The notes under the pieces: generated by a model
The model's database searches: none
What the model was told of the DNA's origin: nothing
What the model saw: only the letters and a program-made list of their open reading frames with translations
Shown: piece after piece, positions 43,450 through 63,536 of the stretch
Layout of the letters: every line of letters begins with the position of its first letter
How positions within the stretch are numbered: position 1 is the first letter of the stretch
Program-made: the position numbers and the translations under genes
From: a bacterium
GTDB lineage: Archaea; Thermoplasmatota; Thermoplasmata; Lutacidiplasmatales; UBA184
Length of the DNA stretch: 64,000 nt
Assembly (NCBI GenBank): GCA_027309555.1
Contig: DAIDCO010000003.1
Location: 6,737 to 70,736, forward strand
Direction: 5' to 3'

Positions 43450-43748
43450 CACAGTGCCCTCTCCGGCGACTTCGCGCGCGAGATGTCGAATGTCCGCCGC
43501 TCCTCGAGGATCCGCCGGACCAGCCGGTCGAACGACTCGTAGCCGACGAGATTCCCTTCGGAGTCTACCAAGGGGCGACGGAGCGAAGCGAGGAGGCTCC
43601 ACGTCTCTGGACGGAGGCGGACAATGCCCCTCGGCGATATTGGCCGGATCCTGCCAACTGAACTTGGGCCGGCCCGTGGCGCTGCTTCCCCGAACCCCTT
43701 CGTCCGCATCAATTCGCACCTTTCGTTACGAATGGTACGAATACGCAC
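43449..43748 (-). CDS. ribbon-helix-helix (CopG/Arc-like) small regulator
   Basis: GIVRLRPETWSLLASL...FDRLVRRILEE beta-strand-helix pattern. Start may be the internal ATG near 43709. Confidence 0.35.
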   Translation of the reverse strand: MRIRTIRNERCELMRTKGFGEAAPRAGPSSVGRIRPISPRGIVRLRPETWSLLASLRRPLVDSEGNLVGYESFDRLVRRILEERRTFDISRAKSPERAL

Positions 43749-45565: not shown

Positions 45566-46273
45566 CTGGCTCGGAAACTCGTTCCAAGTGCGACCGTCCA
45601 GAATACGCCCTGTTCTTGCCTTTTGGACGCCTCCCCATTGCTTGAAGAAGAAGGGGACTGCCTCGCGGCGGCATCGGTTCCTCAGCGTCCTGACCCACTC
45701 CTTCCTCATGGGTCGCGCGTGAGGTCCGCTTTCTCCTCCGACAATAACCCACTGGATCCCGGAGAGGTCCAGTTCATCGAGGGGACCGAGGAGCGGTTCG
45801 AGCGAAAGGAACCGGACGTCAGCGGGGACCTTGCGGAGTTCGTCCGCCCGCCACCCGACGTCCATGTTCTCGATGCTGACTCCCTGCCAGATGTTGGGTT
45901 GCCACGGGAGTGAGGGTCCTACCTCCGCCAACCGCCTCGCGCGTTTCGTCAGAATCTGGAAGACATGCTGGCGGGCGACGACCATTGTCGCGAAGACACG
46001 CCGAATGAAGGTGACCGGCACACGTTCATGGTAGAGGTCGCTCATCGAGTTGACGAAAATTCTCCGGGGCTCTGTCCACGATAGAGGCAACTCGAGGCGG
46101 TCTTCCCAAAGACGGAGGTCGAAGCCCTGCTCAAACGGGTGGCCGGGCACCCCTCGGAAACGCTCCGCGAACCGTTGCGCATAACAGTGTTTACAACCCT
46201 GGCTGACCTTCGTACAACCCGTGACCGGGTTCCACGTCGAGTCCGTCCACTCTATCGAGGAGGACTCGCTCAT
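45545..46273 (-). CDS. phage Gp37/Gp68 family protein (DUF5131, three-Cys motif)
   Basis: WNPVTGCTKVSQGCKHCYA three-Cys signature at the N-terminus. 242 aa. Confidence 0.75.
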   Translation of the reverse strand: MSESSSIEWTDSTWNPVTGCTKVSQGCKHCYAQRFAERFRGVPGHPFEQGFDLRLWEDRLELPLSWTEPRRIFVNSMSDLYHERVPVTFIRRVFATMVVARQHVFQILTKRARRLAEVGPSLPWQPNIWQGVSIENMDVGWRADELRKVPADVRFLSLEPLLGPLDELDLSGIQWVIVGGESGPHARPMRKEWVRTLRNRCRREAVPFFFKQWGGVQKARTGRILDGRTWNEFPSQSRGLEA

Positions 46274-46396
46274 CCCTCACGACTTGAACGGCACCCTCCT
46301 TTAGGGTTCCGTCCGTACGGTCCCCCGCGAGCCGAGTCGGATCCTGCGGCCCTCCGTGGAAAACTCGATTACCCATGACCCCTACTCCCCCGTGAC

Positions 46397-49605: not shown

Positions 49606-49711
49606 ACTACGGGTCGGCCATTCTCGGTGGGAAACTACAACTCGCAGAGGTCTCTTGGTCCCGCAACGGCCCAAGCTCGCGGGCTCGAACTGCCATGAGT
49701 CCGCCATTGAT

Positions 49712-49933
49712 TCAGGCCCCCTGCTTTGAGGAGGGGCCCCTCGAAGCCGTGGCGTGAACGACTCCGATCGCCTCGCGGAAGTCTCGGTTCTTCCGTTCTC
49801 CCGTCTCCCGGAGCGCCGTCTCGGCGAGTTTCTTGAGATCCTCCGGGACGTCCCTCCTCGACTTGATCGAGTCGTAGAACATGAGGGCCATCTCTCTCGC
49901 GCCGTCCCAGTACTCCCTATCGAACCGATTCAT
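49712..49933 (-). CDS. small hypothetical protein
   Basis: MNRFDREYWDGAREMALMFYDSIKSRRDVPEDLKKLAETALRETGERKNRDF. About 73 aa, helical and charged. Confidence 0.3.
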   Translation of the reverse strand: MNRFDREYWDGAREMALMFYDSIKSRRDVPEDLKKLAETALRETGERKNRDFREAIGVVHATASRGPSSKQGA

Positions 49934-50098
49934 GATGAACCACCTTCTGGGACTCGGATTGTATGCGCGGGCGCATATCACCCACACCGGGAGTTCCTGA
50001 AACACCTCCCCCGTCAGCGCATCCGAGCCTGTCGAGGGGGTCCCGTTTCAGGCCCGGCTCCATTCGAGCCCAGCCCCCTTGGAAGCCTACTCGACGTT

Positions 50099-50944
50099 CT
50101 ATCCCTTCCCTGACAGCCTCCGTCTTACCATGACCGCTCCCGACGTCCTTGGTGGCGGTCGTTCAAGCTCGTACTTCCCAGGAATCGCCTCCAGGAGGTC
50201 CCCCAGCTTGCTCTTTCCGAAGGTGCGCGGATCGAAGGCAGGATCGAGCTTCAGCAACGCGTTGCCCAGCTCCGCCAGGTGACAGTATCCGTCCTCCCCG
50301 ACAACTGAGTCAAAGGCCTTATCGATGAGCTCGAAGGCTTCGGTCGAGGCCCGACGACCGCCAGGACCTTCTGTCAGGGCCGAGGCACTCGGGGTCGTCG
50401 CAGAGGAAGGCCTCCTCGACCTCGCAGGCGGCGGGCTCTCTCTGCGAGATCCAATCAGGTTCTCGGTGGCCACGAACACGTTGCATGCGTTTCTGAACGC
50501 GGGAGGGGTCTGGGCCCTACCGATCCCCACGACGAACATGCCAGACTCGCGAAGCCGGGTGGCCAATCTCGTGAAGTCCGAGTCAGACGATACGATGCAA
50601 AATCCTCTGACCCTGCCGCTGTGCAGGATGTCCATGGCATCGATGATCAGCGCGCTATCGGTGGCATTCTTCCCTGAAACCGCGGTGAACTGCTGAACCG
50701 GGACCAGCGCATGCTCCTGAACCGTGGGTCGCCAGGAGGAGAGCTTACCGGAGGCCCAGTCGCCATAGATCCGTCGGATCTCAACTGACCCGTACTTCGC
50801 TGCCTCGGCGAGCATCTCACCGACGAGCCCGGCGGACGCATTGTCTCCATCCACGAGGAAGGCGAGAGGGAGCGATCGAGAATGCGTTACGAGCTCGAGG
50901 GTACCCGGCTCGGCATCGGGAGGCATGGGCCTGGCGATGCACAT
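50099..50944 (-). CDS. NYN (LabA-like PIN) nuclease domain protein with C-terminal OST-HTH/LOTUS domain
   Basis: LAFLVDGDNA (NYN Asp cluster), IVSSDSDF, and a C-terminal OST-HTH-like segment (GYCHLAELGNALLKLDPAFDPRTFGKSKLGDLLEAIP). Confidence 0.6.
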   Translation of the reverse strand: MCIARPMPPDAEPGTLELVTHSRSLPLAFLVDGDNASAGLVGEMLAEAAKYGSVEIRRIYGDWASGKLSSWRPTVQEHALVPVQQFTAVSGKNATDSALIIDAMDILHSGRVRGFCIVSSDSDFTRLATRLRESGMFVVGIGRAQTPPAFRNACNVFVATENLIGSRRESPPPARSRRPSSATTPSASALTEGPGGRRASTEAFELIDKAFDSVVGEDGYCHLAELGNALLKLDPAFDPRTFGKSKLGDLLEAIPGKYELERPPPRTSGAVMVRRRLSGKG

Positions 50945-51172
50945 GAACGTGATGAAACTTACACACCTCGGCGTTGGCCCATGACGGATGGGTCCGGGCC
51001 CGACTCAATTCGGGCCGCCGTCCACGACCTTCTCCGAAGTGGCGTACACGAATAGCTACAACAGTTACTTCTGTACGCGAATGTGAAATATACCTCGGCG
51101 TCGATGATCACCCTCGGGCGAGGCGGGCGGAATCCTGGGTGAGGCGTTGCCGCCCGACCTCGTCCCCGTACC

Positions 51173-53863
51173 ATGAAAGGGAAAGGCGAGACCGGAAGCG
51201 CGACCAAGAGCCGAACGTTCAAGCTCCGAGGCTGGAAACTCCCTCGGGTCGCCAGGGACCGTTGGTGGGCGGCGCCAGTCGCCCTCCTCGTGGTGGCCGC
51301 GATCCTCGCGACCTCGGTCGTCCTCCTCACGGGAGGCACCCGGGTCGTTCAGGAGGAGTGGTCGGCGATCAACCTCTCCCTCGGGTCGAATCCGCTCTCG
51401 CAGCAGCTGAACATCACCTTCGCGAGGGTCAGCTACCTCGACCAGCCCACCCAGTGGAACACGACCGGCTTCCTCAACGCCTCCCTGAGCGCGAACGGAG
51501 CCTGGCTCGACAACACCAGCAGCTACGGGACCCACTACGGGATCGCTCAGGTCAACTCGACCTCGACCGGCACCACGGCGCTCGCCAGCTGGCCGCTCTC
51601 TTCCTACCTCGGCGCGAACGTCAGCTACGCCTTCCTCGACCAGCGGGTCGCGCTCAACGGCACCGGGACCACCTGGCAGCTCGTCCTCTCCGAGGCTCAG
51701 CAGACGGGTCAGGTCTCTACGTCCGGCAACGTCACGAATGGGGCGGCCGGGGCTACCCAGAACGAGGTCTGGGTCCAGGCCTTCTACTCCGCGGGGAACT
51801 TCAGCTTCCTCGCCTACGACTGGGAGGAGAAGCCCGGCGGCTTCCAGACCGTCACCACCTACACCTTCCCCTCGAACGTCGGGGCGCCTCCGCTCCAGTT
51901 CTTCGAGGTCTACGTCTACGCCCAACCCCTCCAGACGGTCGTCAGCATCGTCAACACGACCAACGGAGCCGTGATCGGCTCGACCCCCGCGATGCACCCG
52001 GTCCTCGATGAGAACCTCACGAAGATCGGCTACCTCGGCGACACGCTCACCGCGGCGGCCTCGAGCGTCGACTCAGCGATGATCCTCGACTCCGCGTTCT
52101 TCGTCGACCACAATACCTACGCGAACGCCCCGGGAGCCTCGACCGCCGCGATCCCGATGGTCGCGGGCTCGGTGTCGATCCCCAACGCCGCTCCCTTCGA
52201 CCCGGCGTCCGTGGCCACTCACTGGCTCAATCCGCCGAACTCCCAGAACAGCTACTCGAGTCTCACGGGGTCCCTCTCCGACTTCCCGAGCGTGGTGAAC
52301 TCCTCCTCGTCGGCGAGCGAAACGAGCTCGCTGATCAACGCGACGGCGATCCTGAACTCGACCACGACGGCGAGCGAGGCCGGCGCCGCGGGCACCCTCG
52401 CCACGATCCGCTCCACTCCCGAGGACCAGACGGACGCAGTCAGTTCGACGGCCTACGCGACGACCTGGACTCCCCAGACGATCCAGAGCCAGATCCACTC
52501 CTTCCTGACGAACTACATCTCGGCGAACACCGGGGTCCCGGCCGCCGACATCGAGATCCCGGGCATGCTCGTCTCGAACATCGCCGTCTGGACCCAGTTC
52601 TCGAGCCAAGCGGCGAGCACGATCCACGACTACCTCGCGAGCGCCATTCCCGGGTTCCTCCAGTCGAACAACCTCGCGCTGGTCAACCGGACCACGGGCG
52701 CCATCGACGCGGGCGCCGACATCGGTGAGTTCATGGACCTCTCCACGGGAGCGGTCTATGCGGGTCAGACCAACGACTTCGGTGGGGTATTCGACCCGGT
52801 CGACCACCAGTGGTATGCGAGCGCCGAGGCGGCGGGATTCCCGTCCGGCTCGGGAGTCGGCGCGTCCGGGGCGATCTTCGTCCCCGGGCAGGCCGCGTTC
52901 CTCGGATGGGCCGCGAATGGCGAACCCGAGTTCGGAGTCGGGGGTTGTTTCATCGTCTGTCTCGGCTCGGCGCTCACCGGCGCCGCCTCCGCCGTCTCGA
53001 ACTTCGTCGGCTCCGCCGCGAGCACCGTGAGCAACGCCGTGGGTGGCGTCACGAACACGGTCTCCAACGACGTCATCAAGCCGGTCTCGGGAACCCTCGG
53101 AGGCGACCTCAGCGGCGTCTCGACCGACGTCTCGAAGGCCGTCGACCAGGTGATGCCGTTCTTCGGCGGAACGATCGCGAACATCGGCGGAGCCGTCCAG
53201 GGAACCCTCAGCCACACGCTGAGCGGCATCACGAGCGGGATCGGTTCCGCCGCGAGCGGAGCGGCGGGAGCCATCCTCTCGGGCGTCAACTCGATCTCGA
53301 ACACGATCTACCACGTCGGTGCCGCCGCGGGGTCCGCCATCGGCAGCCTGCCCGGGGAGATCCAGAGCGGGCTCAACGTCGTGGGCAACACCGTGGGAAA
53401 GGTCGTCAGCACCTCCGCGGCTGTTCTGTCGAGCGCCTTCACCACCGCCAGGAACGTGGCGGGTGACGTCGGCAGTGCGATCCTGAACGGCGGCAAGAGC
53501 CTCCTCAGCCTCGCCGGGAACGCCGCCGGCGCCGTGGCCGGCGCGCTCAACACGGTCGGGAGCGCCATCGTGAATGGGGCCTCGGGCGCCCTGAGCTGGG
53601 TCGAGAACGCCTTCGGGACGGCGGGCGCCGACATCATGAACGCGATCAAGGCGATCGGCGGAGCGCTGAATCCGTTCAGTTGGTTCTCGGGATTCTCCTC
53701 GCAGGTCGCCCAGATCCTCGAATACGTCGTGATCGGAGTCGTCGCGTTCGTCCTCGTCTTCGCGATCGTGTTCTTCCTGCACCGTCGGTCGAAGAAGCAC
53801 GGCTCGCGGCAGCGGGGCGGGGAGCGCGGGCGGCACCGCAGCCGACACGCCCACCGGGCGTGA
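51173..53863 (+). CDS. large surface protein with N- and C-terminal TM segments and Gly/Ala/Ser/Val-rich periodic repeats
   Basis: 896 aa. N-terminal TM (WWAAPVALLVVAAILATSVVLL), N-glyc-sequon-rich ectodomain, repeated G-x-A-x-x-V/S-x-x-x-V modules (about aa 600-840), C-terminal TM plus basic tail. Confidence 0.55.
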   Translation: MKGKGETGSATKSRTFKLRGWKLPRVARDRWWAAPVALLVVAAILATSVVLLTGGTRVVQEEWSAINLSLGSNPLSQQLNITFARVSYLDQPTQWNTTGFLNASLSANGAWLDNTSSYGTHYGIAQVNSTSTGTTALASWPLSSYLGANVSYAFLDQRVALNGTGTTWQLVLSEAQQTGQVSTSGNVTNGAAGATQNEVWVQAFYSAGNFSFLAYDWEEKPGGFQTVTTYTFPSNVGAPPLQFFEVYVYAQPLQTVVSIVNTTNGAVIGSTPAMHPVLDENLTKIGYLGDTLTAAASSVDSAMILDSAFFVDHNTYANAPGASTAAIPMVAGSVSIPNAAPFDPASVATHWLNPPNSQNSYSSLTGSLSDFPSVVNSSSSASETSSLINATAILNSTTTASEAGAAGTLATIRSTPEDQTDAVSSTAYATTWTPQTIQSQIHSFLTNYISANTGVPAADIEIPGMLVSNIAVWTQFSSQAASTIHDYLASAIPGFLQSNNLALVNRTTGAIDAGADIGEFMDLSTGAVYAGQTNDFGGVFDPVDHQWYASAEAAGFPSGSGVGASGAIFVPGQAAFLGWAANGEPEFGVGGCFIVCLGSALTGAASAVSNFVGSAASTVSNAVGGVTNTVSNDVIKPVSGTLGGDLSGVSTDVSKAVDQVMPFFGGTIANIGGAVQGTLSHTLSGITSGIGSAASGAAGAILSGVNSISNTIYHVGAAAGSAIGSLPGEIQSGLNVVGNTVGKVVSTSAAVLSSAFTTARNVAGDVGSAILNGGKSLLSLAGNAAGAVAGALNTVGSAIVNGASGALSWVENAFGTAGADIMNAIKAIGGALNPFSWFSGFSSQVAQILEYVVIGVVAFVLVFAIVFFLHRRSKKHGSRQRGGERGRHRSRHAHRA

Positions 53864-53890
53864 GGGCGCCCGGAGGGTCGGTGTTCGGAG

Positions 53891-54379
53891 ATGGCCCAGT
53901 CGAGCAGCCAGGGGAAGCACGCACGAGGTGGAGGATGGAGCGGTATCCTTGGTCTGTTCTTCCTGATCCTGGTCGTCGAACTCGTCCTGGACGTCGTGCT
54001 CCTCCCCGCGGATGTGGTGATCGTCCCGGCGGAGCTGATCGGGGACGCGCTGTTCCTCGCGGTCGGCGTCGGTGGCGCCTTCATGGCGGGCCGGGGGACT
54101 GGAAGGTCGATCCGGCCGCCTCCTCGCTCCTCGCGGTCCCTGCAGGGAAACCGGAAGGCGATCGCGGACTCGGGAGCGGCGCTGGTCCTCGGCTACTGGA
54201 CCTTCGTGGTGGCGATCCTCGCCTTCCAGTGGTGGTTCGCCGTCCACCACCCGATCCTGAACATCCTGACCTTCCCCTTCGAGCTCGTCTTCGACGTCCT
54301 GCTGTTCATGGCGGGAGTCCTGGTCACGCTCTTCGGGGTCTCCCGGAGGTCATCGGATTCCCGGGAGGTCGGCTCGTGA
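53891..54379 (+). CDS. small polytopic membrane protein
   Basis: 162 aa, 4 predicted TM helices. Confidence 0.4.
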   Translation: MAQSSSQGKHARGGGWSGILGLFFLILVVELVLDVVLLPADVVIVPAELIGDALFLAVGVGGAFMAGRGTGRSIRPPPRSSRSLQGNRKAIADSGAALVLGYWTFVVAILAFQWWFAVHHPILNILTFPFELVFDVLLFMAGVLVTLFGVSRRSSDSREVGS

Positions 54380-56103
54380 AGCCCTCCCTCGCGCTCGTCC
54401 TTGTCACCGTTCTGGTGGTCTCGGCGCTGGCCGTGCCGGGTCCGGCGGCCCCGGCGGCCGTCGGGTCCTCCCACGCCGTCGTGACCCCGGCCTCGACCCC
54501 TTCCACGGTGTCCTGGACGGCTTCCGAATACTGCGCGAGCGACGCCCGCCCGGGATTCCTTGGATTCGTGGTGCCGTACTGTCCCGTCGGTGCCGGCTAC
54601 GCCGCACCGCCCGTGACGATGTACAACGTGACGGGGGCGACCACCGGGGTTCCGGTGTGGACGTCCGCGGCGAACAACTCGAGCGGAGAGGTCGTGATCC
54701 TCGCCAACAGCGTGCTCACGCAGCCGACCGCCCAGCCCGTCTACGACTTCCCGACGATGTGGGCCTACCTACCGTACCGTGGGTGGCTCAATCTCACGGC
54801 GGCCAGCTCTCTCGGGACGACTGCGGGAACGCTGGGCTACGACCTCAGCGTCTCCGGCGGCTGCATGGCGTGGGATCCCGCCGAGCACTACTTCCTCGCC
54901 GTCGCGGGTCAGGACAGGGCCAGCGGCAACGGGTGGACGTTCACCTACGCGCCGGGGTCGAGTCCGCTCCCCGGGGGGACGTGGACCAACCGGAGCGGCG
55001 AGGTCATCGGCTGGTCGATGACCAGCTGCGAGATGGCCTGGGACCCCCCGACCCAGGAGATGCTCCTCTACGGGCCCACGCTCGGAGGAACGGGCGCGGA
55101 CTTCTGGTACTGGTCGGGCAACGGCGGTTGGGCGGGGAGTTATCCGACGTCGAGCTACGGGGGCCCTCCCTGTGCCTTCAACGCCACCGTCGCCTACGAC
55201 CCGGTCTCGCAGAAGGTCGTCTTCTTCGGCGGCGACACGGCGGGCTGCACGAGCCAGCCGAGCCCGGTGCTCTCCTACACCTACGCGTGGACCGGGTCCG
55301 TCAGCTGGAGCAACCTGACGTCGAGCCTGACGGTGACTCCGCCCGGGCGCGAGTGGGCGACGTTCTCGACCACGGCCTTCGGGGCCGTCCTGATGGGAGG
55401 CGATGCCTCCCCCACCAATCCGACCGCGGGAGTCCTCAACGACACCTGGCTCTTCGACGGCCAGTGGGTCCCGGAGTCGCTGGCACTCTCGGCAGGGAGC
55501 GGGACGTTCTGCCCCCGCTACGCTGCCTCCGAGGGCTCGCTGAACGCCACCGCCTTCCTCCTGTTCGGCGGCGGGACGACCGGCACGGGAAGCTGTGCCC
55601 CCCAGCCCTTCATCGGCGGTCTCTACGCCCTCAACGACACCTGGACGGTGTCCGGAGTGGCACTCCCGCCCTCGAACCCCCAGGAGAACCAGACGGGGCT
55701 TCCCTGCACCGACGCCCAGCTGAGCTGGACGAACCCGCCGCCTCCCTACGGCCTGTCGCTCGTCAACGACACCGTCTACCTCTACGGAGCCTCGGGCACG
55801 CTCGTTCAGACGATCAGCACCAACGGTCCCACCACCTCGGTGGTGGTCACGGGACTCACCTGCGGTGCCTCCTACACGTTCCGGGTCCGCGGCTGGTTCT
55901 CCGATGGAGCGCCTTCACCGCTCTCGGCCGCTCTCAGCTTCCTGACCGGCAGCGCGGCCGGGAACGGGCAGGGAGGCGGAGGCAACTCGGGAAACGGGGC
56001 GGACCTCACGCTCATCGTGGTCGGCGTGGCCGTGGCGGCCGTCGCGGTCGTGATCGTCGGCCTGTCGTTCCGCCGACGGCGGTCCGGGGGCCGGGAGAGG
56101 TAG
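54376..56103 (+). CDS. secreted Kelch-repeat / FN3-like protein with C-terminal TM anchor
   Basis: GTG overlapping the upstream stop (GTGA). Signal peptide, several W..G/DTW repeats, FN3-like PSNPQEN...SYTFRVRGW, C-terminal TM plus RRRRS. Confidence 0.6.
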   Translation: MKPSLALVLVTVLVVSALAVPGPAAPAAVGSSHAVVTPASTPSTVSWTASEYCASDARPGFLGFVVPYCPVGAGYAAPPVTMYNVTGATTGVPVWTSAANNSSGEVVILANSVLTQPTAQPVYDFPTMWAYLPYRGWLNLTAASSLGTTAGTLGYDLSVSGGCMAWDPAEHYFLAVAGQDRASGNGWTFTYAPGSSPLPGGTWTNRSGEVIGWSMTSCEMAWDPPTQEMLLYGPTLGGTGADFWYWSGNGGWAGSYPTSSYGGPPCAFNATVAYDPVSQKVVFFGGDTAGCTSQPSPVLSYTYAWTGSVSWSNLTSSLTVTPPGREWATFSTTAFGAVLMGGDASPTNPTAGVLNDTWLFDGQWVPESLALSAGSGTFCPRYAASEGSLNATAFLLFGGGTTGTGSCAPQPFIGGLYALNDTWTVSGVALPPSNPQENQTGLPCTDAQLSWTNPPPPYGLSLVNDTVYLYGASGTLVQTISTNGPTTSVVVTGLTCGASYTFRVRGWFSDGAPSPLSAALSFLTGSAAGNGQGGGGNSGNGADLTLIVVGVAVAAVAVVIVGLSFRRRRSGGRER

Positions 56104-56107
56104 GAAG

Positions 56108-57205
56108 ATGGCGCTGTTCGCTTCCGACCCCGTCGAACGCGAGGCCGTCCGCCTCGGCCGGGTCCACGAGGTGCCCGCGGAGATCCACTACTCGAGCGGT
56201 TCCGACCGCTGGTGGTATCACGGCCCGCTCTGGGTGCAGGAGACCCGACCGGTCCACGAGTGGGAGTTCAGCCCCGCGCTCCGGGACCCCCGAAACCGGC
56301 TCGTTCTCCGACTCATCAAGAAGGGCTGGACCGACGAGCGGATCGCCGCCGAGCTGGTCTCCGAGGTCCGGCTGACGGAACCGCTGACTCCCGAAGAGGA
56401 GCGCGCCGCGCTGCGTAGCGCGACCGTCGTGGTACGGGAGGTCCGCCGGGCTTCGGGACGCGCCCACGAGCCCCACGTCCTGCGAATCTACGGCCTCAAG
56501 AACGCCTCGAAGACCGACGAGCGGATCCTGGTGACCATCGACCAGGACCTGGTCCACGAGGCGCCGATGGTCCCGTTCACTCGGACCGAGAAGGGAAGCC
56601 GACGCCTCCAGTTCGCCATGATGGCGGCGATGGCGATCATCGACGCGATCTTCCTCTACGCGATGGTCTCCTTCGTCAACGCCGGACCGTCGTTTGCCGT
56701 CAACGCGGGACAGATCCAGCAGCTTTCCCTCTCCTTCGGCCAGCTGATCGCCCTTCCCTCGGTCATCCTCGTGACCTACGTCCTGATGGCACGGAGAACG
56801 CTCGTTCTCGACCTCGAGATCCAACCCGTCGTCGAGGACCTCGAGGACACCCACAGCGAGGCCGTCTACCTCGTCAACTCGGAGAAGACCCCGGCGTCGA
56901 CGTATCTGTCGCGGACGTTCCGGCTCGATCCGGCCGCCGTCCGGAGCCTGACCGAGGAAATTGCGCGGTTCCAGTCCGACACGATCGCGAACCTGCAGGA
57001 ACAGTCCCGCTCGCTGCGGACCGAGCTCGACTCGGCGAAGGTGCTCGGCGGCGAGGCGTGGAGCCAGTCGACGGACCTCAAGGCGCTCGACCAGCGCCAC
57101 CTCCCGTCGATCCACCACGATCCTCTCGGGACGTGGGTCCTCGTCGGGATCGTCGCCACGGTGGTCGGCGTGGTCGTCTGGGCGGCCATGGCCGCGGGGG
57201 TGTGA
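56108..57205 (+). CDS. membrane protein, unknown function
   Basis: 365 aa. Soluble N-domain, central TM helices, C-terminal TM. Confidence 0.45.
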   Translation: MALFASDPVEREAVRLGRVHEVPAEIHYSSGSDRWWYHGPLWVQETRPVHEWEFSPALRDPRNRLVLRLIKKGWTDERIAAELVSEVRLTEPLTPEEERAALRSATVVVREVRRASGRAHEPHVLRIYGLKNASKTDERILVTIDQDLVHEAPMVPFTRTEKGSRRLQFAMMAAMAIIDAIFLYAMVSFVNAGPSFAVNAGQIQQLSLSFGQLIALPSVILVTYVLMARRTLVLDLEIQPVVEDLEDTHSEAVYLVNSEKTPASTYLSRTFRLDPAAVRSLTEEIARFQSDTIANLQEQSRSLRTELDSAKVLGGEAWSQSTDLKALDQRHLPSIHHDPLGTWVLVGIVATVVGVVVWAAMAAGV

Positions 57206-57208
57206 CCG

Positions 57209-57916
57209 ATGCCTCGGGAAACCTTCGTCGGGGTCGTCCTCGTGGCGGTCCTGACCGTTCTCTCGCTCGGCTCCCCGCTCCTGGGGACGGCTCGCGCGGC
57301 CGGCTCCTCCGCCTCCGCGGTCGAGTACTATCGGCTCGACCCCGGCACGCCCACCGAGGAGTCCTCCACCTACGCTCTTCCGATCTTCGTCGTCGCCGAG
57401 CCGGTCGGTTCCGTGGCGAACCGGTCCGTGACTCAGCAGGCGTGGCAGGGTCTCCAGGTCGTCGAGGTGGGCACTCCCACCGTCCCGTTCCTCAACTGGT
57501 CGGTGCCCGACTGGTCGACGGGAGCGTTCGAGCTGGCCCTCTCGCTGACAGCCGAGGAGGTCCATGCCATCGTGGGAGGGCAGGCGATCCTCGCCCTCAA
57601 CTCCTCGATCCGGGTCGGTTCTACGGTCGTCGGCGCCGCCGGGATCATCGACGGCGCGGTCCTCGACTCGGCCACCGTCGTCGGCTCCTGGTGGAGCGCG
57701 GTCTTCGGCATGTCGACACCGCCTCCCGACCCCACGTTGTCCTCGCTCCCCGGCATCCTCGACGACCTCGCTTGGTTCGGAGCCTCCACCGCGGGCCGTG
57801 CGACGTATGCCGCCACGACCATCGTCGCCGTCCTGCTCTACCTCTGGGAGGGCCACAAGCTCGCCCGGGCCAAGCTGTCGGGCGACCCGTCCCGGTCCCG
57901 TCGGGAGGCAATCTGA
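57209..57916 (+). CDS. secreted/membrane protein, unknown function
   Basis: 235 aa. N-terminal signal/TM and C-terminal TM. Confidence 0.45.
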   Translation: MPRETFVGVVLVAVLTVLSLGSPLLGTARAAGSSASAVEYYRLDPGTPTEESSTYALPIFVVAEPVGSVANRSVTQQAWQGLQVVEVGTPTVPFLNWSVPDWSTGAFELALSLTAEEVHAIVGGQAILALNSSIRVGSTVVGAAGIIDGAVLDSATVVGSWWSAVFGMSTPPPDPTLSSLPGILDDLAWFGASTAGRATYAATTIVAVLLYLWEGHKLARAKLSGDPSRSRREAI

Positions 57917-58206
57917 TGGCGCTCGGAGCGGACCTCCTGCTCGCCGTCGCCTTCCTCGCCGCCGTCGGGCTCCTCTTCACGATCGCGACCGCGCTGAAGA
58001 ACTGGGTCTTCGAGCTCAGCCCCCGCGAGTGGGGCTACTCGGCGATCCTGACGTTCAGCCTCGGCGTCCTCGCCGCCGCCTACCTCGACGGCGACGGGAC
58101 CCTCGAGCTTCTCGCGATGGTGCCGATCTTCCTCGCGGTCGTCTGGTGGGTCGCAAGGCTCTGGCGGCGCCACCAGGGCCGGGCGGCCCGCGGGACGGAG
58201 ACGTAG
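57916..58206 (+). CDS. small membrane protein
   Basis: ATG overlaps the upstream stop (TGATG). 3 TM helices. Confidence 0.4.
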   Translation: MALGADLLLAVAFLAAVGLLFTIATALKNWVFELSPREWGYSAILTFSLGVLAAAYLDGDGTLELLAMVPIFLAVVWWVARLWRRHQGRAARGTET

Positions 58207-58207
58207 C

Positions 58208-58969
58208 ATGGCGTCCATCGCTCCCAGCCGGGACCGGCCGCCGACCGTCCTCGACACCGGGGAACGCTGGCGCCTTGCGTTCTGGGAGAAGCACAGCCAT
58301 GCGATCCAGTCGGACCTTCTCGAGATCACCGGCTGGTTGGGCCGCTCCCCGGACCGGGAGGTGCTGACCGAGGCCGGTGGCAAGGTCCGGTTCGTCCGGG
58401 CCGGGACGGCTCCGGCCAGCGTGCTCTTCCGGGTCCCTCGGGAAGGCACCCGTGCCTACCAGAACTGGGAGTGGTGCCTCGGCTACCTCCGGATGGAGCA
58501 GAGCCGCCGATGGCTCGTCCGGCAGCAGGTCGAGGAGGCGGAACGGGCTCTCCAGGACGCGGAGGAGGAGCTGAAGGCACTCCGCGGCCGCCATCGGAAA
58601 CTCGATTCCCGTCTCCGGTCGCTGGCGGAGCGCGCGCGTGCCGGCGCCCGCTCGGGTTCCGGGCAGCAGCCGAACGGGCCGCTGGCGCAACTCCAGGCCG
58701 GTATGGCCGAGGCCCGGGAGAATCTCGCGGTCTACCGGGTCGCCGAGCGGCATCGGGACACGATCCGGCTCCGACTCGAAGGGTATCGGGACCACCTCGT
58801 CCCGCGAGTCTACCCGGGGCTCTGGGCCCGGGTCAACGCGTTCCTCGACATGCAGGCGCTCTCGGTGGCCAACGTGGCGAGCGAGGAGTTCCGCCGCCAC
58901 CCGCAGCTCGCCGCCCGGTGGGCCGACCGCAGGGAACAGGCTCTCGCGGAGGATGAGAGTCTTGACTGA
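58208..58969 (+). CDS. hypothetical soluble protein with central coiled coil
   Basis: 253 aa. QQVEEAERALQDAEEELKALRGRHRKLDSRLRSLAERA. Confidence 0.45.
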   Translation: MASIAPSRDRPPTVLDTGERWRLAFWEKHSHAIQSDLLEITGWLGRSPDREVLTEAGGKVRFVRAGTAPASVLFRVPREGTRAYQNWEWCLGYLRMEQSRRWLVRQQVEEAERALQDAEEELKALRGRHRKLDSRLRSLAERARAGARSGSGQQPNGPLAQLQAGMAEARENLAVYRVAERHRDTIRLRLEGYRDHLVPRVYPGLWARVNAFLDMQALSVANVASEEFRRHPQLAARWADRREQALAEDESLD

Positions 58970-59387
58970 CCCCGTCACCTCTCCGCCTTCCGCGGAGGAG
59001 TTCAAGCGGATCCCATCCGGAAAACGCCTCTACGGACTGCTCCTCTCCGCCACCGACGAGATCACCCTCAACCACGCAACGCCCGGGGTCTCGTTCTCCT
59101 ATCCGATCCTCGGCGAGCTCGCGAGCGACCTCCTGGTCCTCGCGGAGACCGAGCTCGAGAAGGGTTCCAGCGACTCGTCGACCCAGCTCCTCGCCGAGTG
59201 GAAGTCGCTTGACGAGCATCTCGGCTCGGCAGAGGCGCGAAACTGGGAGGTCGACGCTCCGGAGGCCCGGATCCGCCTGACCTGTCTCAAGCGCTACCTG
59301 CTCCGCTCCGGCCTCATGGCGCAGCGCGAGGCGGAGGCGGACGCGCCGGACCGGTATCTCGTCCGTGAGGAGGTTCCCGGAGCATGA
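58953..59387 (+). CDS. hypothetical protein
   Basis: 144 aa. Start overlaps the upstream gene end. Acidic helical protein. Confidence 0.4.
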   Translation: MRVLTDPVTSPPSAEEFKRIPSGKRLYGLLLSATDEITLNHATPGVSFSYPILGELASDLLVLAETELEKGSSDSSTQLLAEWKSLDEHLGSAEARNWEVDAPEARIRLTCLKRYLLRSGLMAQREAEADAPDRYLVREEVPGA

Positions 59388-60496
59388 GCGATTGGGTCCC
59401 GCCCCTCGCCCACATGATCCTCGACGACCGGGTCGACCGTGGAGTGTCTCCGACGAGGGCGCTGGAGCGAGCCGAACACTACCGGCGCTGGCTCGAGACA
59501 CTACCCTCCGCGCACGACCGGCTGACCTGTCCGGAGGAGGCGAAGATCCGCCTCTGGCCCGGGAGCCTCTGCTTCCACAAGGGACAGGCGACCGTGGTGG
59601 TGGGAAGCCAGGGGAAGGGAAAGACGAACCTCCTCGCCTTCCTCATCGAGCGGGCGATCCGGCACCGGCCGGAGTGGGAGATCTACAGCAACATCCCGTT
59701 CCCCTGGGACGAGGAACTGGCGGGCATCGTTCCTCCTCCGCCGCGTCTCCACTCGATCTCGACGATGTCGGAGCTGCTCCGGGGCATCGCGCAGACCGTC
59801 CTCGCGGGCCGGGAGCCGGCGGTCGTCATTGACGAGATGGACCAGGTGGCGACGAGCCACGAGTGGATGACGGAGCGGAGCGAGTCGTGGACGAAGTTCC
59901 TGTTCGTGGAGCGGCACCTGAGGGTCTGGGGGCCGATCCTCGCCTACCATGTCCGGGAGCACGTGCCGCTGCCGCTCCGGGCGAACGCCGCCCTGCGCGG
60001 AAGCTACCTGAGGGTCATCGTTCGGCACGGGAAGCACCAGTTCGTCCGGGCAGAGGACCCGACGTATTTCGGAGGCATCTGGGAGAGCGTGCTGCCGTTC
60101 CTGACGCTCGGGCTGCGGGGGTTCGAGATCGACGTCGACATGCGGGAACTGCAGACGGTGGCGCGGGGAAGCCACCGGAGGGTCGCGGAACTCACCCTGC
60201 AGTACCTCGACGACCTCGACGGGCGCCGGAAGGAGGAAGAAACCACCCGTCGCGACGTGCCCCGGAAGTCGGACCTGCCTTCCCCCGAGGTCGCTCATGC
60301 CCTGGTCGAAGCGGAGGTCATCCGTCGTCTCGAGAGCGGGGCTACTCACCGGCAGATCGTCGAAGCGACCGGCCTCTCGAAGTACATGGTCGCGGGCGTC
60401 TCCGTCCGATGGAGGGCGTCGCGCCTGCGGCAGCAGGGGCCGGCTCCCGATTCCCCCGGGGGCGCCCGGTGCCCGGTGCCCGGGAGCCCCCCTTGA
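59384..60496 (+). CDS. P-loop NTPase with C-terminal HTH-like domain
   Basis: Walker A VVVGSQGKGKTNLL, Walker B AVVIDEMDQ, C-terminal THRQIVEATGLSKYMVAG. Confidence 0.6.
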   Translation: MSDWVPPLAHMILDDRVDRGVSPTRALERAEHYRRWLETLPSAHDRLTCPEEAKIRLWPGSLCFHKGQATVVVGSQGKGKTNLLAFLIERAIRHRPEWEIYSNIPFPWDEELAGIVPPPPRLHSISTMSELLRGIAQTVLAGREPAVVIDEMDQVATSHEWMTERSESWTKFLFVERHLRVWGPILAYHVREHVPLPLRANAALRGSYLRVIVRHGKHQFVRAEDPTYFGGIWESVLPFLTLGLRGFEIDVDMRELQTVARGSHRRVAELTLQYLDDLDGRRKEEETTRRDVPRKSDLPSPEVAHALVEAEVIRRLESGATHRQIVEATGLSKYMVAGVSVRWRASRLRQQGPAPDSPGGARCPVPGSPP

Positions 60497-60577
60497 CGCT
60501 CTCTCTAGGACGCGCGCGCGCGAGGGGAGGAATCGTTCCGGTTCTTCCGGGAAGGAGTCCGGTCCGGGGAGGCCGTC

Positions 60578-61261
60578 ATGTCGATTGACTGGGGCGGAGT
60601 GGCGGGGAGCTTCCTTACCGCCTTCGTTCTGGTCGTCCCCTTCGTCGTCACCCTGCGGCCCCGTGCGCTGAGTCTGGCCGGAGGAGCGACCTTCGTCGCC
60701 CTCGCCGCCCTCCTGGTGGAGGTCCTGGTCCAGAACGCCCTCCAGCCACTCTACGCTGCCGCGGTCGTCCTCGTCTTCGTGGCGCCGCTGACCGAGGAGT
60801 TGCTCAAGTTCCTCGACTCGGGTCTCACCGGGGCGAACTACGCCTCCGCTGCCGGGGCGGGGATCGGCTTCGCCGCCACCGAGAACGCCCTCTACTTCCT
60901 CGTCGCGTGGGGGGAGCCCCTCTCCTACCTCGTGGCCCTGATCGCCATCCGAACGGTCACGGACCCGCTGCTCCACGTAACGGCGACGACGCTCACCACC
61001 CTCTCCTGGCACGGCCGGCCCTGGGGCCTACCGGCCGGCATCGCCCTCCATGCCCTCTGGAACACGGTGGCACTGATCGAGGTCTACATCGACCCGACCG
61101 TCGGCCTCCTCCTGCTGGGCGCGGCCGGGTTCGCGGTTCTCGGGATCCTCCTCCTGCTGCGGCGCAACCCGGAAGTCCGGGAAACGCTGACCGACCGCTG
61201 GAGGATGAACCCGTGGTCGGGGTCGCTGCTCCCGGCGGGAGCGGCCGGAGAAGCAACATGA
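60578..61261 (+). CDS. CPBP-family (CAAX/Abi-like) intramembrane protease-like protein
   Basis: 6 or more TM helices, EELLKF (EExxx[RK]-like) and HALWN (HxxxN) motifs. Confidence 0.4.
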   Translation: MSIDWGGVAGSFLTAFVLVVPFVVTLRPRALSLAGGATFVALAALLVEVLVQNALQPLYAAAVVLVFVAPLTEELLKFLDSGLTGANYASAAGAGIGFAATENALYFLVAWGEPLSYLVALIAIRTVTDPLLHVTATTLTTLSWHGRPWGLPAGIALHALWNTVALIEVYIDPTVGLLLLGAAGFAVLGILLLLRRNPEVRETLTDRWRMNPWSGSLLPAGAAGEAT

Positions 61262-61632
61262 CCGAGGAGAGGTGGTCGGGCCACGTGGGGCACCTCGAGG
61301 AGGGCGGGCTGCACGGCTGGTGCGCGAGTTGCCCTCCCGAGGAACGACACCGGGCGATCGAGCGGACGGTCCGGGCCGATGGCTACGCGACCGCGACGCG
61401 CCGGCTGAACTTCCTCGCGAACGTGGCGAACCGACACGACAACGAGCACCTGCACCGCGTCGCCCGGGAAGACCGCGAGTGGACCGAGGACCGGGAGAAG
61501 GAGGAGCGCGAGAACGAGGACCGGCGTCGGGAGCCGGGGGAGTTCCACCGCGTCGAGGGATACCGCAAGGCGGTCGGCGACCGGGTTCGACCCCACGTCG
61601 CCCGGAACCCGCGACGGAGGAGGCAACCTTGA
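61258..61632 (+). CDS. small protein, paralog A, with Arg-rich C-terminal motif
   Basis: ATGA overlap with the upstream gene. WCASCPPEERH near the N-terminus. C-terminus GEFHRVEGYRKAVGDRVRPHVARNPRRRRQP. Confidence 0.45.
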   Translation: MTEERWSGHVGHLEEGGLHGWCASCPPEERHRAIERTVRADGYATATRRLNFLANVANRHDNEHLHRVAREDREWTEDREKEERENEDRRREPGEFHRVEGYRKAVGDRVRPHVARNPRRRRQP

Positions 61633-61982
61633 CCGAGGAGGAATACGTGGTCACGGCCCGGACTCCCAGTATGAGTGCCCCGGGCTTCTACGTCTTCCAC
61701 TCGAAGAAGGTGGCCGAGCACTGGGCGGCGTCCATTCGGAGAGGAGGGGGCGAGGCCAGAGTCCGCCCGAAGTCGCCGGAGTATTCGGTCGAGGCCGGGA
61801 ACCGCCCGGACTACGACGCGGTCCGGACGGAGGGGTCGAGAGCGAAGGAAGAGGACGAAGTTCCCGAGGAGGAGGACCGACCCAAGAGGAGCGGCGAGTT
61901 CCATCGGGTCGATGGCTACCGCAAGGAAGACGGAGCCCAAGTCCGGGCGCACCTCGCGAGGAACCCGCGGAGGCGGAGGTGA
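61629..61982 (+). CDS. small protein, paralog B, with the same Arg-rich C-terminal motif
   Basis: TTG start overlapping the upstream stop (TTGA). C-terminus GEFHRVDGYRKEDGAQVRAHLARNPRRRR. Confidence 0.4.
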   Translation: MTEEEYVVTARTPSMSAPGFYVFHSKKVAEHWAASIRRGGGEARVRPKSPEYSVEAGNRPDYDAVRTEGSRAKEEDEVPEEEDRPKRSGEFHRVDGYRKEDGAQVRAHLARNPRRRR

Positions 61983-62248
61983 AGCGCGGTGCCACTCCGG
62001 TCTGGGCCTTCGTGGTCGGAGCGCTATTCGTTCTGGCCGGCTTGTGGGCCCTCCTCAACGGGATCGCGTGCGCGGCCCTCCTGAACTCGGTTGGGCCATC
62101 GATACCCTCCGGTCCCTCTCAGTTCTGCGGGACCTACGAGTGGGGCGGAGCGCTGCTGCTAATGCTCGGCATCGCCCTGCCGATCGGCGTGGCACTGGCA
62201 TCCCGTCACGGACGCGGGGCTTCGGGACGGGCGATCCGGAGCCGATGA
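61979..62248 (+). CDS. small membrane protein
   Basis: GTGA overlap. Two TM helices with a Cys pair. Confidence 0.4.
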   Translation: MKRGATPVWAFVVGALFVLAGLWALLNGIACAALLNSVGPSIPSGPSQFCGTYEWGGALLLMLGIALPIGVALASRHGRGASGRAIRSR

Positions 62249-62514
62249 CCGAGCGTCGAGCGTCGAGCGCCGACCGACTCACAGGGTTCTGGGACCCGTG
62301 TGGACCTATTGCGAGCGGCCTGCGGCCTGCCGAGTCGGACTTCGAGGCGGCCATCCTGGGCGCCCTCACCGATAGTGTCCCCCCCCGAGAGGCGCTGGCG
62401 TGGGTTGCCCGGTGGCAGACCCGGCGGGGAGGGCATGAGCGGCGGGGTTCGGCTCGAAGGCGATCGGGCACTCATCCGAAGGCACAGCGGCCGTTGAAGG
62501 AGGGCAGACGATGA
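62245..62514 (+). CDS. small hypothetical protein
   Basis: ATGA overlaps at both ends. 89 aa. Confidence 0.35.
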   Translation: MTERRASSADRLTGFWDPCGPIASGLRPAESDFEAAILGALTDSVPPREALAWVARWQTRRGGHERRGSARRRSGTHPKAQRPLKEGRR

Positions 62515-63212
62515 CCGGTGGGACCACGGCGCTCTACGTGCGAGTGAGTTCCGAGGAGCAAGACCTAGTCGGACAGGAACGAGAGTTGCGCGGTTACGCC
62601 GAGGCCAGGAACTGGACGGTCGTCGGCAGCTACGCCGAGAAGGTCACGGGGACCGGGAAGGTCGAGCGGAAGGCGTACGAACGTCTCCTGCGGGACGCGG
62701 GGGAACGGAAGTTCGATCACCTGGTGGTCTGGGCGCTGGACCGGTTCAGTCGAGAGGAGACGTTCACGAAGGCCACGCAAGCGATCCTCGACCTGGAGGG
62801 GCTCGGTATCCGGTTTCACTCGCTCAAGGAACCGATGTTGGACACCCCCGAGGACGGCCGGCCGAACCTCGGAAGAGACGTGCTGCTTGCACTGCTTCCG
62901 GTCATTGCGAGCTTCGAGTCGAAGCGTCGGTCGGAACGGGTCCGTGTGGCGATGCGGGAGATCAAGGAGGGACGACGGCGGACGCGTAGCGGGCGTCCGC
63001 CGGGTCGGCCCGTCCGGGCGACGCCCGAGAAGGTGTCGGCGATCGTTCGCCTGAAGGCCCAAGGGCTGACGTGGAGGGTCATCGCCCAACGAGTCGGGCT
63101 GCCGAGGGGGACCTGTGCCAACGTCGCTTCCCGGGTGCGCCGGGGGCTATTAGAAAACTCTCTCGATACGAAAGGGTCGGATCGGCCTTCGACGGACCCG
63201 GTCCCTACGTAA
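62511..63212 (+). CDS. serine recombinase (resolvase/invertase family)
   Basis: ALYVRVSSEEQ, LDRFSRE motif. Paralog of the recombinase at 1200..1907. Confidence 0.8.
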   Translation: MTGGTTALYVRVSSEEQDLVGQERELRGYAEARNWTVVGSYAEKVTGTGKVERKAYERLLRDAGERKFDHLVVWALDRFSREETFTKATQAILDLEGLGIRFHSLKEPMLDTPEDGRPNLGRDVLLALLPVIASFESKRRSERVRVAMREIKEGRRRTRSGRPPGRPVRATPEKVSAIVRLKAQGLTWRVIAQRVGLPRGTCANVASRVRRGLLENSLDTKGSDRPSTDPVPT

Positions 63213-63536
63213 AGTGCCCGTTTCGGACCCCGTTCGTAAGAGCCTAATCAGCGGGCAGCTTTGTCGGGTGTCTCCAGAGGGGACTGACTGTCGATTCAAT
63301 TCTCCATCGTTCAGAGGGCCGGTCCTCTCAGTTCTTGAGGCCAGGGTCCGGATCGATGAGCAGCCCGCGAGTCGGTGTAGCCGCGAGCGAGTCTTTCGAC
63401 TTACGGCCACAGACTTGATTCCGTTAGCCTGGAGCCTCTCCAAACGGGTTAGCTCTTAACCACGGCTTTGAAACCATCCACCCTGGGAAGTCCGAAATAC
63501 GCGAGTCGCGTGCCGGGAAGCGAGGATCAGCACACA

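Follow-up and report, generated by a model that had tools for sequence, protein, structure and literature searches.

The 64,000-nt window analysed here (contig DAIDCO010000003.1, from an uncultured Thermoplasmata archaeon of soil or peat) carries at 51173–63212 a block of 15 genes, G1–G15, which encode anchored surface proteins, small membrane proteins, a P-loop ATPase, an intramembrane protease and a serine recombinase. Positions given without a locus code refer to this window; L-codes denote related loci and P-codes related proteins. Fifteen open reading frames (ORFs) on the + strand fill the block, co-directional and tightly coupled, as an earlier reading of the letters without database searches (the sequence-only reading) had proposed. 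They are listed below.

51173–53863, + strand: G1, 896 amino acids (aa), predicted anchored surface protein
53891–54379, + strand: G2, 162 aa, polytopic membrane protein with about 4 transmembrane segments; kept in 9 loci
54376–56103, + strand: G3, 575 aa, with signal sequence, Kelch β-propeller, FN3-like domain, C-terminal transmembrane segment and Arg-rich tail; 12 sequons
56108–57205, + strand: G4, 365 aa, with strongly conserved N-terminal soluble domain (HYSSGSDRWWYHG motif), 2 transmembrane segments, coiled coil and C-terminal transmembrane segment
57209–57916, + strand: G5, 235 aa, secreted glycoprotein with signal sequence, 3 sequons and hydrophobic C-terminal stretch; kept in 12 loci
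57916–58206, + strand: G6, 96 aa, membrane protein with two transmembrane segments; 41–88% identity wherever the gene is present
58208–58969, + strand: G7, 253 aa, basic (pI 9.9) cytoplasmic coiled-coil protein
58953–59387, + strand: G8, 144 aa, acidic cytoplasmic protein, always ahead of the ATPase gene G9
59384–60496, + strand: G9, 370 aa, P-loop ATPase with Walker A (QGKGKT-N), Walker B (VVIDEMDQ) and a C-terminal three-helix helix-turn-helix (HTH) domain
60578–61261, + strand: G10, 227 aa, PrsW-family polytopic intramembrane protease with EELLK and HALWN motifs
61258–61632, + strand: G11, 124 aa, cytoplasmic protein containing Cys/His motifs, its C-terminal tail rich in Arg; the conserved core ends with this gene
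61629–62514, + strand: G12–G14; G12, tail paralogue of G11; G13, 89 aa with 2 transmembrane segments; G14, 89 aa
62511–63212, + strand: G15, 233 aa, small serine recombinase of the resolvase/invertase type

Neighbouring genes meet at GTGA (54376 and 61979), TGATG (57916), ATGA (59384, 61258, 62245 and 62511) and TTGA (61629) junctions, and the sole gaps of any size within G1–G15 are 27 nt (G1–G2) and 81 nt (G9–G10). All the junctions named in the sequence-only reading exist, with the correction that the G7/G8 overlap at 58953 amounts to 17 nt rather than 4. For the genes retained by the filter, GC content at third codon positions (GC3) in the called frames is 0.87–0.91, and for G15 it is 0.79; the high GC3, together with the recurrence of these ORFs, in unchanged order, on more than 20 independent contigs, indicates that these are real genes. 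By predicted topology, G1, G3 and G5 are secreted or anchored and carry 16, 12 and 3 NxS/T sequons, respectively; G2, G4, G6, G10 and G13 are membrane proteins, and G7, G8, G9, G11, G12, G14 and G15 are cytoplasmic. Apart from G9 (weak AAA matches), G10 and G15, no gene of the block has a significant Pfam or NCBIfam match, the Kelch domain of G3 being recognized through homology; nine of the 11 core proteins have no significant match to a Pfam, NCBIfam or PDB sequence family.

Searching protein collections with G9 and G1, scanning species-representative genomes and metagenomes, and looking up contigs yielded about 45 related loci. Wherever the contig is long enough (more than 20 contigs), G1–G11 stand in the same order, with amino-acid identities of 31–97% (tblastn). 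Nearly all contigs, some of them up to 2.2 Mb long, are labelled or binned as Thermoplasmata or are unbinned metagenome contigs, and homologues with a named source come from metagenome-assembled genomes of ‘Thermoplasmata archaeon’, except for a few evident mis-binnings. By exact sequence, the block was also located on contigs of metagenome-assembled genomes, for example DAIDCL010000002.1 of GCA_027309605.1 (74 kb), and on a contig of up to 113 kb. The spread is sparse: the 185,579 species genomes scanned yielded only 12 loci, 10 of the records being labelled Thermoplasmata, and two genomes hold two copies each.

The closest relative, L021, is 96% identical to window positions 50997–63229 (12.2 kb) and 93% identical to 49678–50071, and beyond these limits both flanks are unrelated. 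Across the loci, the neighbours include restriction–modification genes, candidate defence genes (PDC-M30, DUF3800, SMC-like, DEAD/MZB helicase), IS21, IS66 and DDE transposases, and ordinary host genes. The block behaves as a discrete, context-independent unit that moves or is exchanged horizontally rather than a fixed chromosomal system, as judged from these varied contexts and neighbours, the double copies and the mosaic alleles described next. To this extent the mobility suspected in the sequence-only reading is supported, and the search of sibling genomes and metagenomes proposed there did recover the same block in varied surroundings.

Mosaicism is most evident around the ATPase gene. Compared with L011, identity is 93–97% for G1–G4, 32% for G8, 62% for G9 and 88–96% for G10–G15. 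The swapped segment covers 58893–60611, from the 3′ end of G7 through G8–G9; the divergent allele is carried by L004, L011, L013, L012 and L020, with flanking genes 85–97% identical, and the breakpoints 58893/4 and 60610/1 are common to these five loci. Mosaic evolution of this kind is typical of viruses and other mobile elements. The cassette also varies downstream of G11, where the order G12–G13–(G14)–recombinase occurs in the window, L002, L011 and L021, and only part of G14 with the recombinase in L020. G12–G14 are thus variable accessory genes restricted to window-type loci (G12 and G13 in L002, L011 and L021; G14 in L021 and, partially, in L020); a 169-aa gene replaces them in L004, L013 and L010, and nothing follows G11 in the other loci. 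Reduced versions exist as well: the copy in MFD00991.bin.2.14 retains G4–G11, G14 and G15 only, and the minimal variant L048 consists of G4, a 104-aa gene without detectable similarity at the place of G6, G7, G8 and a G9 with a zinc finger instead of the HTH.

One complete 2.18-Mb Thermoplasmata chromosome, OY970259.1, carries a full cassette (L013, 1657–14932) and, about 2.9 kb further on, a second, partial one (L020, 1–7202). The latter comprises G4–G11, G14 and the recombinase gene and has a different G8–G9 allele; the loci span both sides of the record origin, and apparent frameshifts in L013 and L020 may be long-read errors. A separate observation concerns the downstream flanks of L010 (19969–20837) and L011 (18334–19202), which share an 869-bp segment, 99.3% identical and inverted, that is probably an insertion sequence. 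Searches of the literature, including that on pleolipoviruses in Thermoplasmata hosts, and of databases found no description of the cassette.

The only link from this cassette to a characterized virus group runs through G9. Its Walker A and B motifs lie on a RecA-like α/β core, which places it among the RecA-superfamily (ASCE) P-loop ATPases, and both motifs as well as the three-helix C-terminal tail agree with the nucleoside triphosphatase (NTPase) with HTH tail recognized in the sequence-only reading. Pfam yields weak AAA matches only, and a VirB4/HerA/FtsK-type translocase ATPase, as used in conjugation or Ced-type DNA transfer, was not found among the cassette proteins. The sole meaningful PHROG match of G9 is phrog_1979 (1.5e-5); 18 of 24 members of the G9 family match it (best E 1.7e-7), and no other PHROG recurs. 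HRPV-1 VP8, His2 ORF33 and HRPV-10 ORF7 fall in the same group (E 1e-93 to 1e-111), so by these matches phrog_1979 is the pleolipovirus VP8/His2 ORF33 ATPase family.

Profile–profile comparison points in the same direction. The viral genomes covered by the analysis were HRPV-1, HHPV-1, HRPV-2, His2, HRPV-10 and AvPV1. With profiles, hhalign aligned the G9 family (alignment A1) with the pleolipovirus ATPases (A2) at 88% probability and E 2.9e-6 over 126 columns, a region that spans from Walker A to the strand past Walker B. An exhaustive search of 1.84 billion representative proteins with a G9 hidden Markov model returned only 75 matches, which makes this a small family. The weakest of the 75 (P0144, P0133, P0140 and P0131) match both the G9 and the pleolipovirus ATPase profiles with 94–98% probability, and P0144, P0133 and P0140 bridge the two further by matching phrog_1979 at 1e-11 to 1e-18. 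Homology between G9 and the pleolipovirus VP8-type NTPase is therefore real but distant, and in this one respect the resemblance to pleolipoviruses raised in the sequence-only reading gains support.

Predicted DNA binding seems to be a conserved feature of the G9 family, because the HTH is exchanged for a C2H2 zinc finger in one branch (P0030, P0031 and P0033 of A1; L048 10001–11017). His2 ORF33, like G9, has an HTH. Searches of PDB sequences with G9, as a single sequence and as a profile, and with the G1, G4 and G7 profiles gave nothing significant, and a BFVD fold search with G9 returned generic DnaB/RecA-like matches (TM score ~0.3), the top ones unnamed.

G8 is a likely partner of the ATPase. 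It co-varies with G9 (32% identity where G9 has 62%), and the two genes occur alone in L015, with two copies of G8 and one of G9; in L037 and L040, both of low GC, a weak homologue of G8 likewise stands ahead of one of G9. In L037 (289–6308, on a metagenome contig of 34% GC), the G9 homologue has 35% identity, keeps all motifs and bears a long N-terminal extension. This G9 homologue and its weak G8 companion lie 2 kb downstream of a gene for a 1008-aa PrimPol-D5_N-Pox_D5 replication protein, suggesting that the G8–G9 pair is present on plasmid- or virus-like elements of low-GC archaea.

The large surface protein G1 has both an N- and a C-terminal transmembrane segment, in agreement with the anchored, glycoprotein-like character ascribed to it in the sequence-only reading. 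Between the two anchors lie a lectin domain (residues ~75–314), an α/β domain (~470–580) and a helical region of 250 residues rich in Gly, Ser, Ala and Val, which precedes the C-terminal anchor and has only weak tape-measure-like matches; a basic tail ends the protein. In the structural model, residues ~75–314 are a concanavalin-A-like lectin β-sandwich. This fold is shared with the carbohydrate-binding modules of phage receptor-binding proteins and with legume-type lectins at an identity of only 7–12%; G1 differs in that the domain is joined to a long helical stalk of low complexity and to a transmembrane anchor. The tblastn search of INPHARED phage genomes with G1 gave a chance-level match only (E 0.3, to a tape-measure gene). 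We consider G1 a candidate receptor-binding spike and speculate that its Gly/Ser/Ala/Val-rich segment could be membrane-active.

G3, described in the sequence-only reading as an anchored Kelch/FN3 protein, fits that description, with a weak fn3 match (7e-5). Its residues 164–426 are homologous to the Pfam-confirmed Kelch propeller of the protein encoded at 35471–37513 (BLASTP E 1e-14); the L008 counterpart matches Pfam Kelch and the L003 counterpart fn3, and the size of the protein differs among loci from 562 to 1182 aa. The homologous 680-aa Kelch protein suggests exchange of surface-protein domains between cassette and host. Genes for secreted Kelch/NHL β-propeller proteins (680 and 1003 aa) occupy 35471–42169, upstream of the block, and in the source contig (L041) genes for PKD-domain proteins of 557 and 1073 aa directly follow the recombinase gene.

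Among the smaller proteins, G4 belongs to the deepest conserved core, being retained even in L048, and has no PDB, Pfam or NCBIfam relative; G7 likewise has none in the PDB, and G2 has a weak, below-threshold match to Holin-X in Pfam. G10 had been taken for a CPBP protease, which proved wrong: it matches PrsW (PF13367, E 2.3e-10, 40.8 bits against a cut-off of 23.5), has no match to CPBP (PF02517), and PrsW is its sole Pfam family at E ≤ 0.1. The protein has about 6–7 hydrophobic segments and is present in all full cassettes. In Bacillus, PrsW is the site-1 protease of RsiW. G10 shares with it the PF13367 domain and the polytopic topology, but lies amid anchored glycoproteins and outside any anti-sigma factor context.

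The tails of G11 and G12 share 87 nt at 75% identity, so the tandem Arg-tail paralogues of the sequence-only reading are genuine, as is the serine recombinase that closes the block. G15 matches the Resolvase family (PF00239, 4.6e-27, residues 7–152) and HTH_23 (1e-4, residues 177–212), contains a YVRVSSEEQ motif and thus belongs to the small serine recombinases, with which it shares the catalytic domain and the C-terminal HTH. It is not a large serine integrase; its scores against the NCBIfam models for Ccr, IS607, Mpi and YneB are all below the equivalog cut-offs, and many cassettes do not include it. Among the subset of loci that do, G15 is about 96% identical in L002, L011 and L020, and 56% identical and inverted in L008.

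The conserved unit is somewhat larger than the block. It starts upstream of the boundary drawn in the sequence-only reading, at about 49678, with a small divergent gene, and includes a conserved leader. The features at the borders are the following.

49712–49933, − strand: small divergent gene, 73 aa, directly upstream of G1 in every locus reaching that far; matches the L021 gene call
50042–50055, + strand: 14-nt motif CCCGTTTCAGGCCC, overlapping the start of the left hairpin element (50051–50071)
50099–50944, − strand: NYN + OST-HTH gene (Pfam NYN 7e-31, OST-HTH 2e-9)
51086–51172, + strand: G1 leader with a TATA-like AAATATA (51086–51092) and a 15-bp GC-rich hairpin/inverted repeat
63213–63230, + strand: right border, where homology to L021, L011, L002 and L020 ends about 14–19 nt past the recombinase stop codon

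The DNA of the divergent gene is 77–93% conserved in L004, L005, L009, L010, L011, L013, L018 and L021, and its product has no Pfam or NCBIfam match. The NYN gene, in turn, is an accessory insertion of about 925 bp in the conserved unit and not a core gene: L021, L011 and L013 lack it, window position 50071 there being joined to 50997. Copies of a hairpin element flank the insertion at 50051–50071 and 50996–51016 (GGCCCGGCTCCATTCGAGCCC and GGCCCGACTCAATTCGGGCC) and are identical at 17 of 21 positions. The gene is present in L004 and L030, and in L010 it lies downstream of the cassette in inverted relative orientation. Accessory genes added to mobile elements are known as morons, and the NYN gene appears to have been inserted in the manner of one.

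The 14-nt motif CCCGTTTCRGRCCC occurs in two exact copies in the window, at 50042–50055 and 63217–63230, in direct orientation and bracketing the NYN gene and G1–G15; if one mismatch is allowed, the total rises to three, where 0.31 would be expected. Both copies are exact in the window, near-exact in the close relative L021 only, and not kept in other loci; considered as an attL/attR core, the motif is of uncertain significance because of this lack of conservation in more distant loci.

In the leader, an alignment of eight loci places the hairpin arms at 51116–51130 and 51150–51165, with the loop at 51131–51149; the hairpin ends 7 nt before the G1 ATG. Since 13 of the 16 predicted pairs never vary, the alignment provides no covariation evidence. 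Fold z-scores lie between −1.1 and −3.9. Relative to the window and L021, the 19-nt loop is reverse-complemented in L004, L011, L013, L010, L018 and L005, and in this form can pair with the 5′ arm to give alternative structures. The hairpin could be an operator, an RNA leader switch or the site of a hairpin flip-flop mutation.

Upstream of the cassette, the defence-type block and NYN gene pointed out in the sequence-only reading are present: a PDC-M30 A/B pair, a type IIG-like methyltransferase gene and the NYN + OST-HTH gene. The candidate PDC-M30 pair lies at 44459–49294 (M30A, 4e-53; DUF5131 protein, M30B/M41B, 1e-104 to 1e-109) and is followed by the gene for a 965-aa type IIG-like N6-methyltransferase, all in low-GC DNA (0.60–0.62). 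GC content is 66–74% over most of the window and dips to 0.60–0.62 at 43–51 kb. At the GC drop from 0.68 to 0.61, a gene for a RecT-family single-strand annealing protein (PF03837) and three small ORFs occupy 42081–43709 on the − strand; a larger composite island or provirus, to which both the defence genes and the cassette belong, may have its edge here. Elsewhere in the window, AT skew reaches −0.29 to −0.30 at 26001–29000, over a 710-aa gene with 4Fe-4S dicluster domains (27299–29431).

Our tentative preference is to see in the cassette a mobile element of a new family, integrated in the genomes of high-GC uncultured Thermoplasmata, capsid-less, and either pleolipovirus-like or vesicle-forming. 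The proposed unit comprises the divergent gene and G1–G11 (~49678 to 61632), with G12–G14 and G15 extending it to ~63230. Its gene repertoire matches an enveloped particle without a capsid: the three anchored glycoproteins have folds of the receptor-binding type, several small membrane proteins accompany them, and nothing capsid-like is encoded. Judged by this repertoire and by its architecture, the cassette may work in the manner of the pleolipovirus module (HRPV-1 VP3, VP4, ORF6, ORF7, VP8; His2 ORF28–33). Both have co-directional genes for anchored glycoprotein(s) and small membrane proteins, a P-loop NTPase of ~340–400 aa as the last or next-to-last module gene (with an HTH in His2) and no capsid gene, are comparable in size, and keep a conserved module beside variable non-homologous genes. 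The cassette measures 11–13.5 kb, which is within the 7–17 kb range of pleolipoviruses (PMC10919331).

The differences are equally clear. The cassette has about twice as many genes, a lectin-domain spike, Kelch/FN3 and PrsW proteins, and coiled-coil and Arg-tail proteins; it carries no Rep, protein-primed DNA polymerase or tyrosine integrase, and its hosts are non-halophilic Thermoplasmata. The VP8-like NTPase is the only one of the five pleolipovirus core genes that is detectably shared, so membership in the Pleolipoviridae is not established. Proteins of a topology analogous to VP3, ORF6 and ORF7 do exist in the cassette (G2, G5, G4 and G6); the cassette gave no PHROG match to phrog_5900, phrog_1938 or phrog_5952, and all hhalign probabilities were below 3%. 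Divergent pleolipovirus-like proviruses outside haloarchaea have precedents in ‘Thalassapleoviridae’ AvPV1 of Archaeoglobus and in the VP4 proviruses of Methanomassiliicoccales (PMC10919331). The latter group belongs to the phylum Thermoplasmatota. Elements of both kinds were recognized through a V-shaped, VP4-like fusogen, have flanking att sites and carry tyrosine integrases (PMC10919331). AvPV1 has two spike-like genes and extra genes between spike and NTPase. The fusogen and att/integrase features of both were not found in the cassette, and AvPV1 gp03–gp10 have no significant similarity to its proteins. By concept, the cassette can also be likened to plasmid vesicles such as those of pR1SE, a mobile element whose genes include ones for membrane proteins and which spreads, with no capsid, inside vesicles derived from the host; pR1SE itself is a replicating plasmid of ~50 kb from the haloarchaeon Halorubrum lacusprofundi.

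We hypothesize that the core is the morphogenetic module of a capsid-less enveloped particle or transfer vesicle, distantly related to that of pleolipoviruses. A single promoter and the leader upstream of G1 would drive a translationally coupled operon. G1 (a lectin on a Gly/Ser/Ala-rich stalk), G3 (Kelch and FN3) and G5 would be N-glycosylated anchored surface proteins that decorate a patch of the host membrane and, at a later stage, attach to glycans or surface proteins of recipient cells, with G2, G4 and G6 as integral components of the patch. The PrsW-type protease G10 may process at least one of the anchored proteins. At the cytoplasmic face, G9 and its putative partner G8, the coiled-coil protein G7 and the Arg-tailed G11 would recruit or load the DNA of the element at the membrane before budding. 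The serine recombinase, where present, would resolve, excise or insert the element.

A more specific form of this reading, possible but rather doubtful, is an unrecognized lineage, at family level or higher, of capsid-less enveloped archaeal viruses or vesicle-transmitted elements of soil and peat Thermoplasmata, sharing only the G9-type ATPase with pleolipoviruses. Hardly any viruses are known from these hosts. The entry machinery of such a lineage would differ, with a lectin-headed stalked glycoprotein (possibly a new membrane-fusion protein), a Kelch/FN3 co-receptor and a dedicated PrsW-type maturation protease.

Several results weigh against a pleolipovirus-like element. Direct similarity between G9 and pleolipovirus ATPases is weak (25 bits), and a control with IstB, the IS21 helper ATPase, reached E 1.5e-3 over 48 columns. 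Single-sequence hhalign comparisons of the G9 profile with individual pleolipovirus ATPases were no stronger than this control, so the homology claim relies on the profile–profile alignment, the PHROG recurrence and the bridging sequences. Tblastn with G9 found no match in INPHARED phages or PLSDB plasmids, and neither did its profile in IMG/VR. Outside G9, hhalign detected no likeness of the cassette families to VP3, VP4, ORF6, ORF7 or ORF9, or to AvPV1 gp03–gp09, which is where the resemblance proposed in the sequence-only reading fails. The VP4-like V-shaped spike or fusogen is the hallmark of pleolipoviruses and of their relatives in Archaeoglobi and Methanomassiliicoccales (PMC10919331); it was not found in the cassette, and the modelled domains of G1 do not have this fold. 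The surface proteins are absent from L048 and must therefore be dispensable or replaceable.

Some signals of mobility are missing as well. The conserved unit holds no replication initiator and no tyrosine or large serine integrase, and neither a circular or short stand-alone contig nor a viral one was found. The right end is sharp in five loci, whereas the left border is ragged. A search of 49–64 kb for att-like direct repeats or invertase-type inverted repeats produced GC-rich noise and the G11/G12 paralogy only, and no flanking att duplication was found. Integration at tRNA genes is not supported: the Rfam/tRNA scan found only a tRNA-Ile at 32952, 17 kb away, and none of the 15 related loci scanned holds a tRNA. 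The GC3 of the cassette (0.87–0.91) is host-like, that of the flanking islands being lower. No CRISPR array was found in the window and related loci, and the search for an empty site, using exact copies of the window flank genes, returned only the same arrangement in the same population. Two other explanations stay in play because replication and integration functions are missing and codon usage is like that of the host.

The first of these, named as an alternative in the sequence-only reading and regarded by us as unlikely, is a horizontally exchanged cellular envelope system for adhesion, cell–cell contact or DNA uptake or export. It would consist of lectin and Kelch glycoproteins with membrane subunits, be energised or regulated by a RecA/KaiC/FlaH-like ATPase, depend on PrsW for maturation and form no particles at all. 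It accommodates the codon usage and the missing replication and integration genes, the constant location on chromosomal contigs of up to 2.2 Mb, and the intact, length-conserved genes, which imply selection for function. The homology of the G3 propeller to a host Kelch surface protein in the window and the PKD, NHL and Kelch surface-protein genes nearby in the source contig and in L048 fit it as well. It is harder to reconcile with the sparse and patchy spread, the divergent multiple copies in single genomes and the differing flanks of 96% identical copies, or with an ATPase whose DNA-binding domains are swappable (HTH or zinc finger) and whose only relatives outside its family are virus-type ATPases; the distant G8–G9 pair beside a PrimPol helicase also argues against it.

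Still less probable is a defective or domesticated provirus remnant, that is, the morphogenetic module as the sole survivor of an ancient virus of pleolipovirus type, kept by the host, for example for vesicles or superinfection exclusion, and spread only by recombination within genomic islands. The ragged left border, the missing att sites and replication/integration functions, the host-like codon usage, the partial copy in MFD00991.bin.2.14 and the minimal L048 and L015 would all be expected of such a remnant. However, the core genes are intact in nearly all loci, with apparent frameshifts only in L002, L011, L013, L016 and L020 that may be assembly errors, and recent movement is implied by copies that are nearly identical yet lie in different contexts.

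It is very improbable that the cassette is a novel multi-gene system for anti-virus defence or surface exclusion: it does adjoin PDC-M30, restriction–modification, DUF3800, SMC-like/Metallophos, DEAD/MZB helicase and NYN genes in several loci, but defence islands are usual landing sites of mobile elements too, the block is dominated by large glycosylated surface proteins, and PADLOC found nothing for G4, G7, G8 and G10 and a marginal mad8 match for G9 (E 8e-4), with no stretch passing alone. Two further candidates were ruled out, an actinobacterial integrative and conjugative element or Tad-like system because the window is archaeal (type II 3-dehydroquinate synthase, PF01959, beside shikimate genes; homologues named Thermoplasmata), and an S-layer or core envelope locus because of the sparse, multi-copy distribution.

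Although thousands of Thermoplasmatota genomes exist, reports of proviruses in them are very few; one survey of ~7,300 genomes lists 30 provirus regions in Thermoplasmatota and Nanobdellota combined (PMC13573593). If the cassette makes particles, it would extend the non-lytic, vesicle-like lifestyle of pleolipoviruses to abundant archaea of soil and peat. The morphogenetic ATPase, and not the VP4 fusogen, would then be the deeper marker for finding such elements, and G1 could represent a new class of prokaryotic proteins for fusion or attachment. As nine of the 11 core proteins have no significant Pfam, NCBIfam or PDB family match, the cassette offers new structures and functions to be discovered in a compact set of genes. 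Should it prove to be a cellular surface machine instead, it would represent a new archaeal envelope system coupled to a DNA-binding ATPase.

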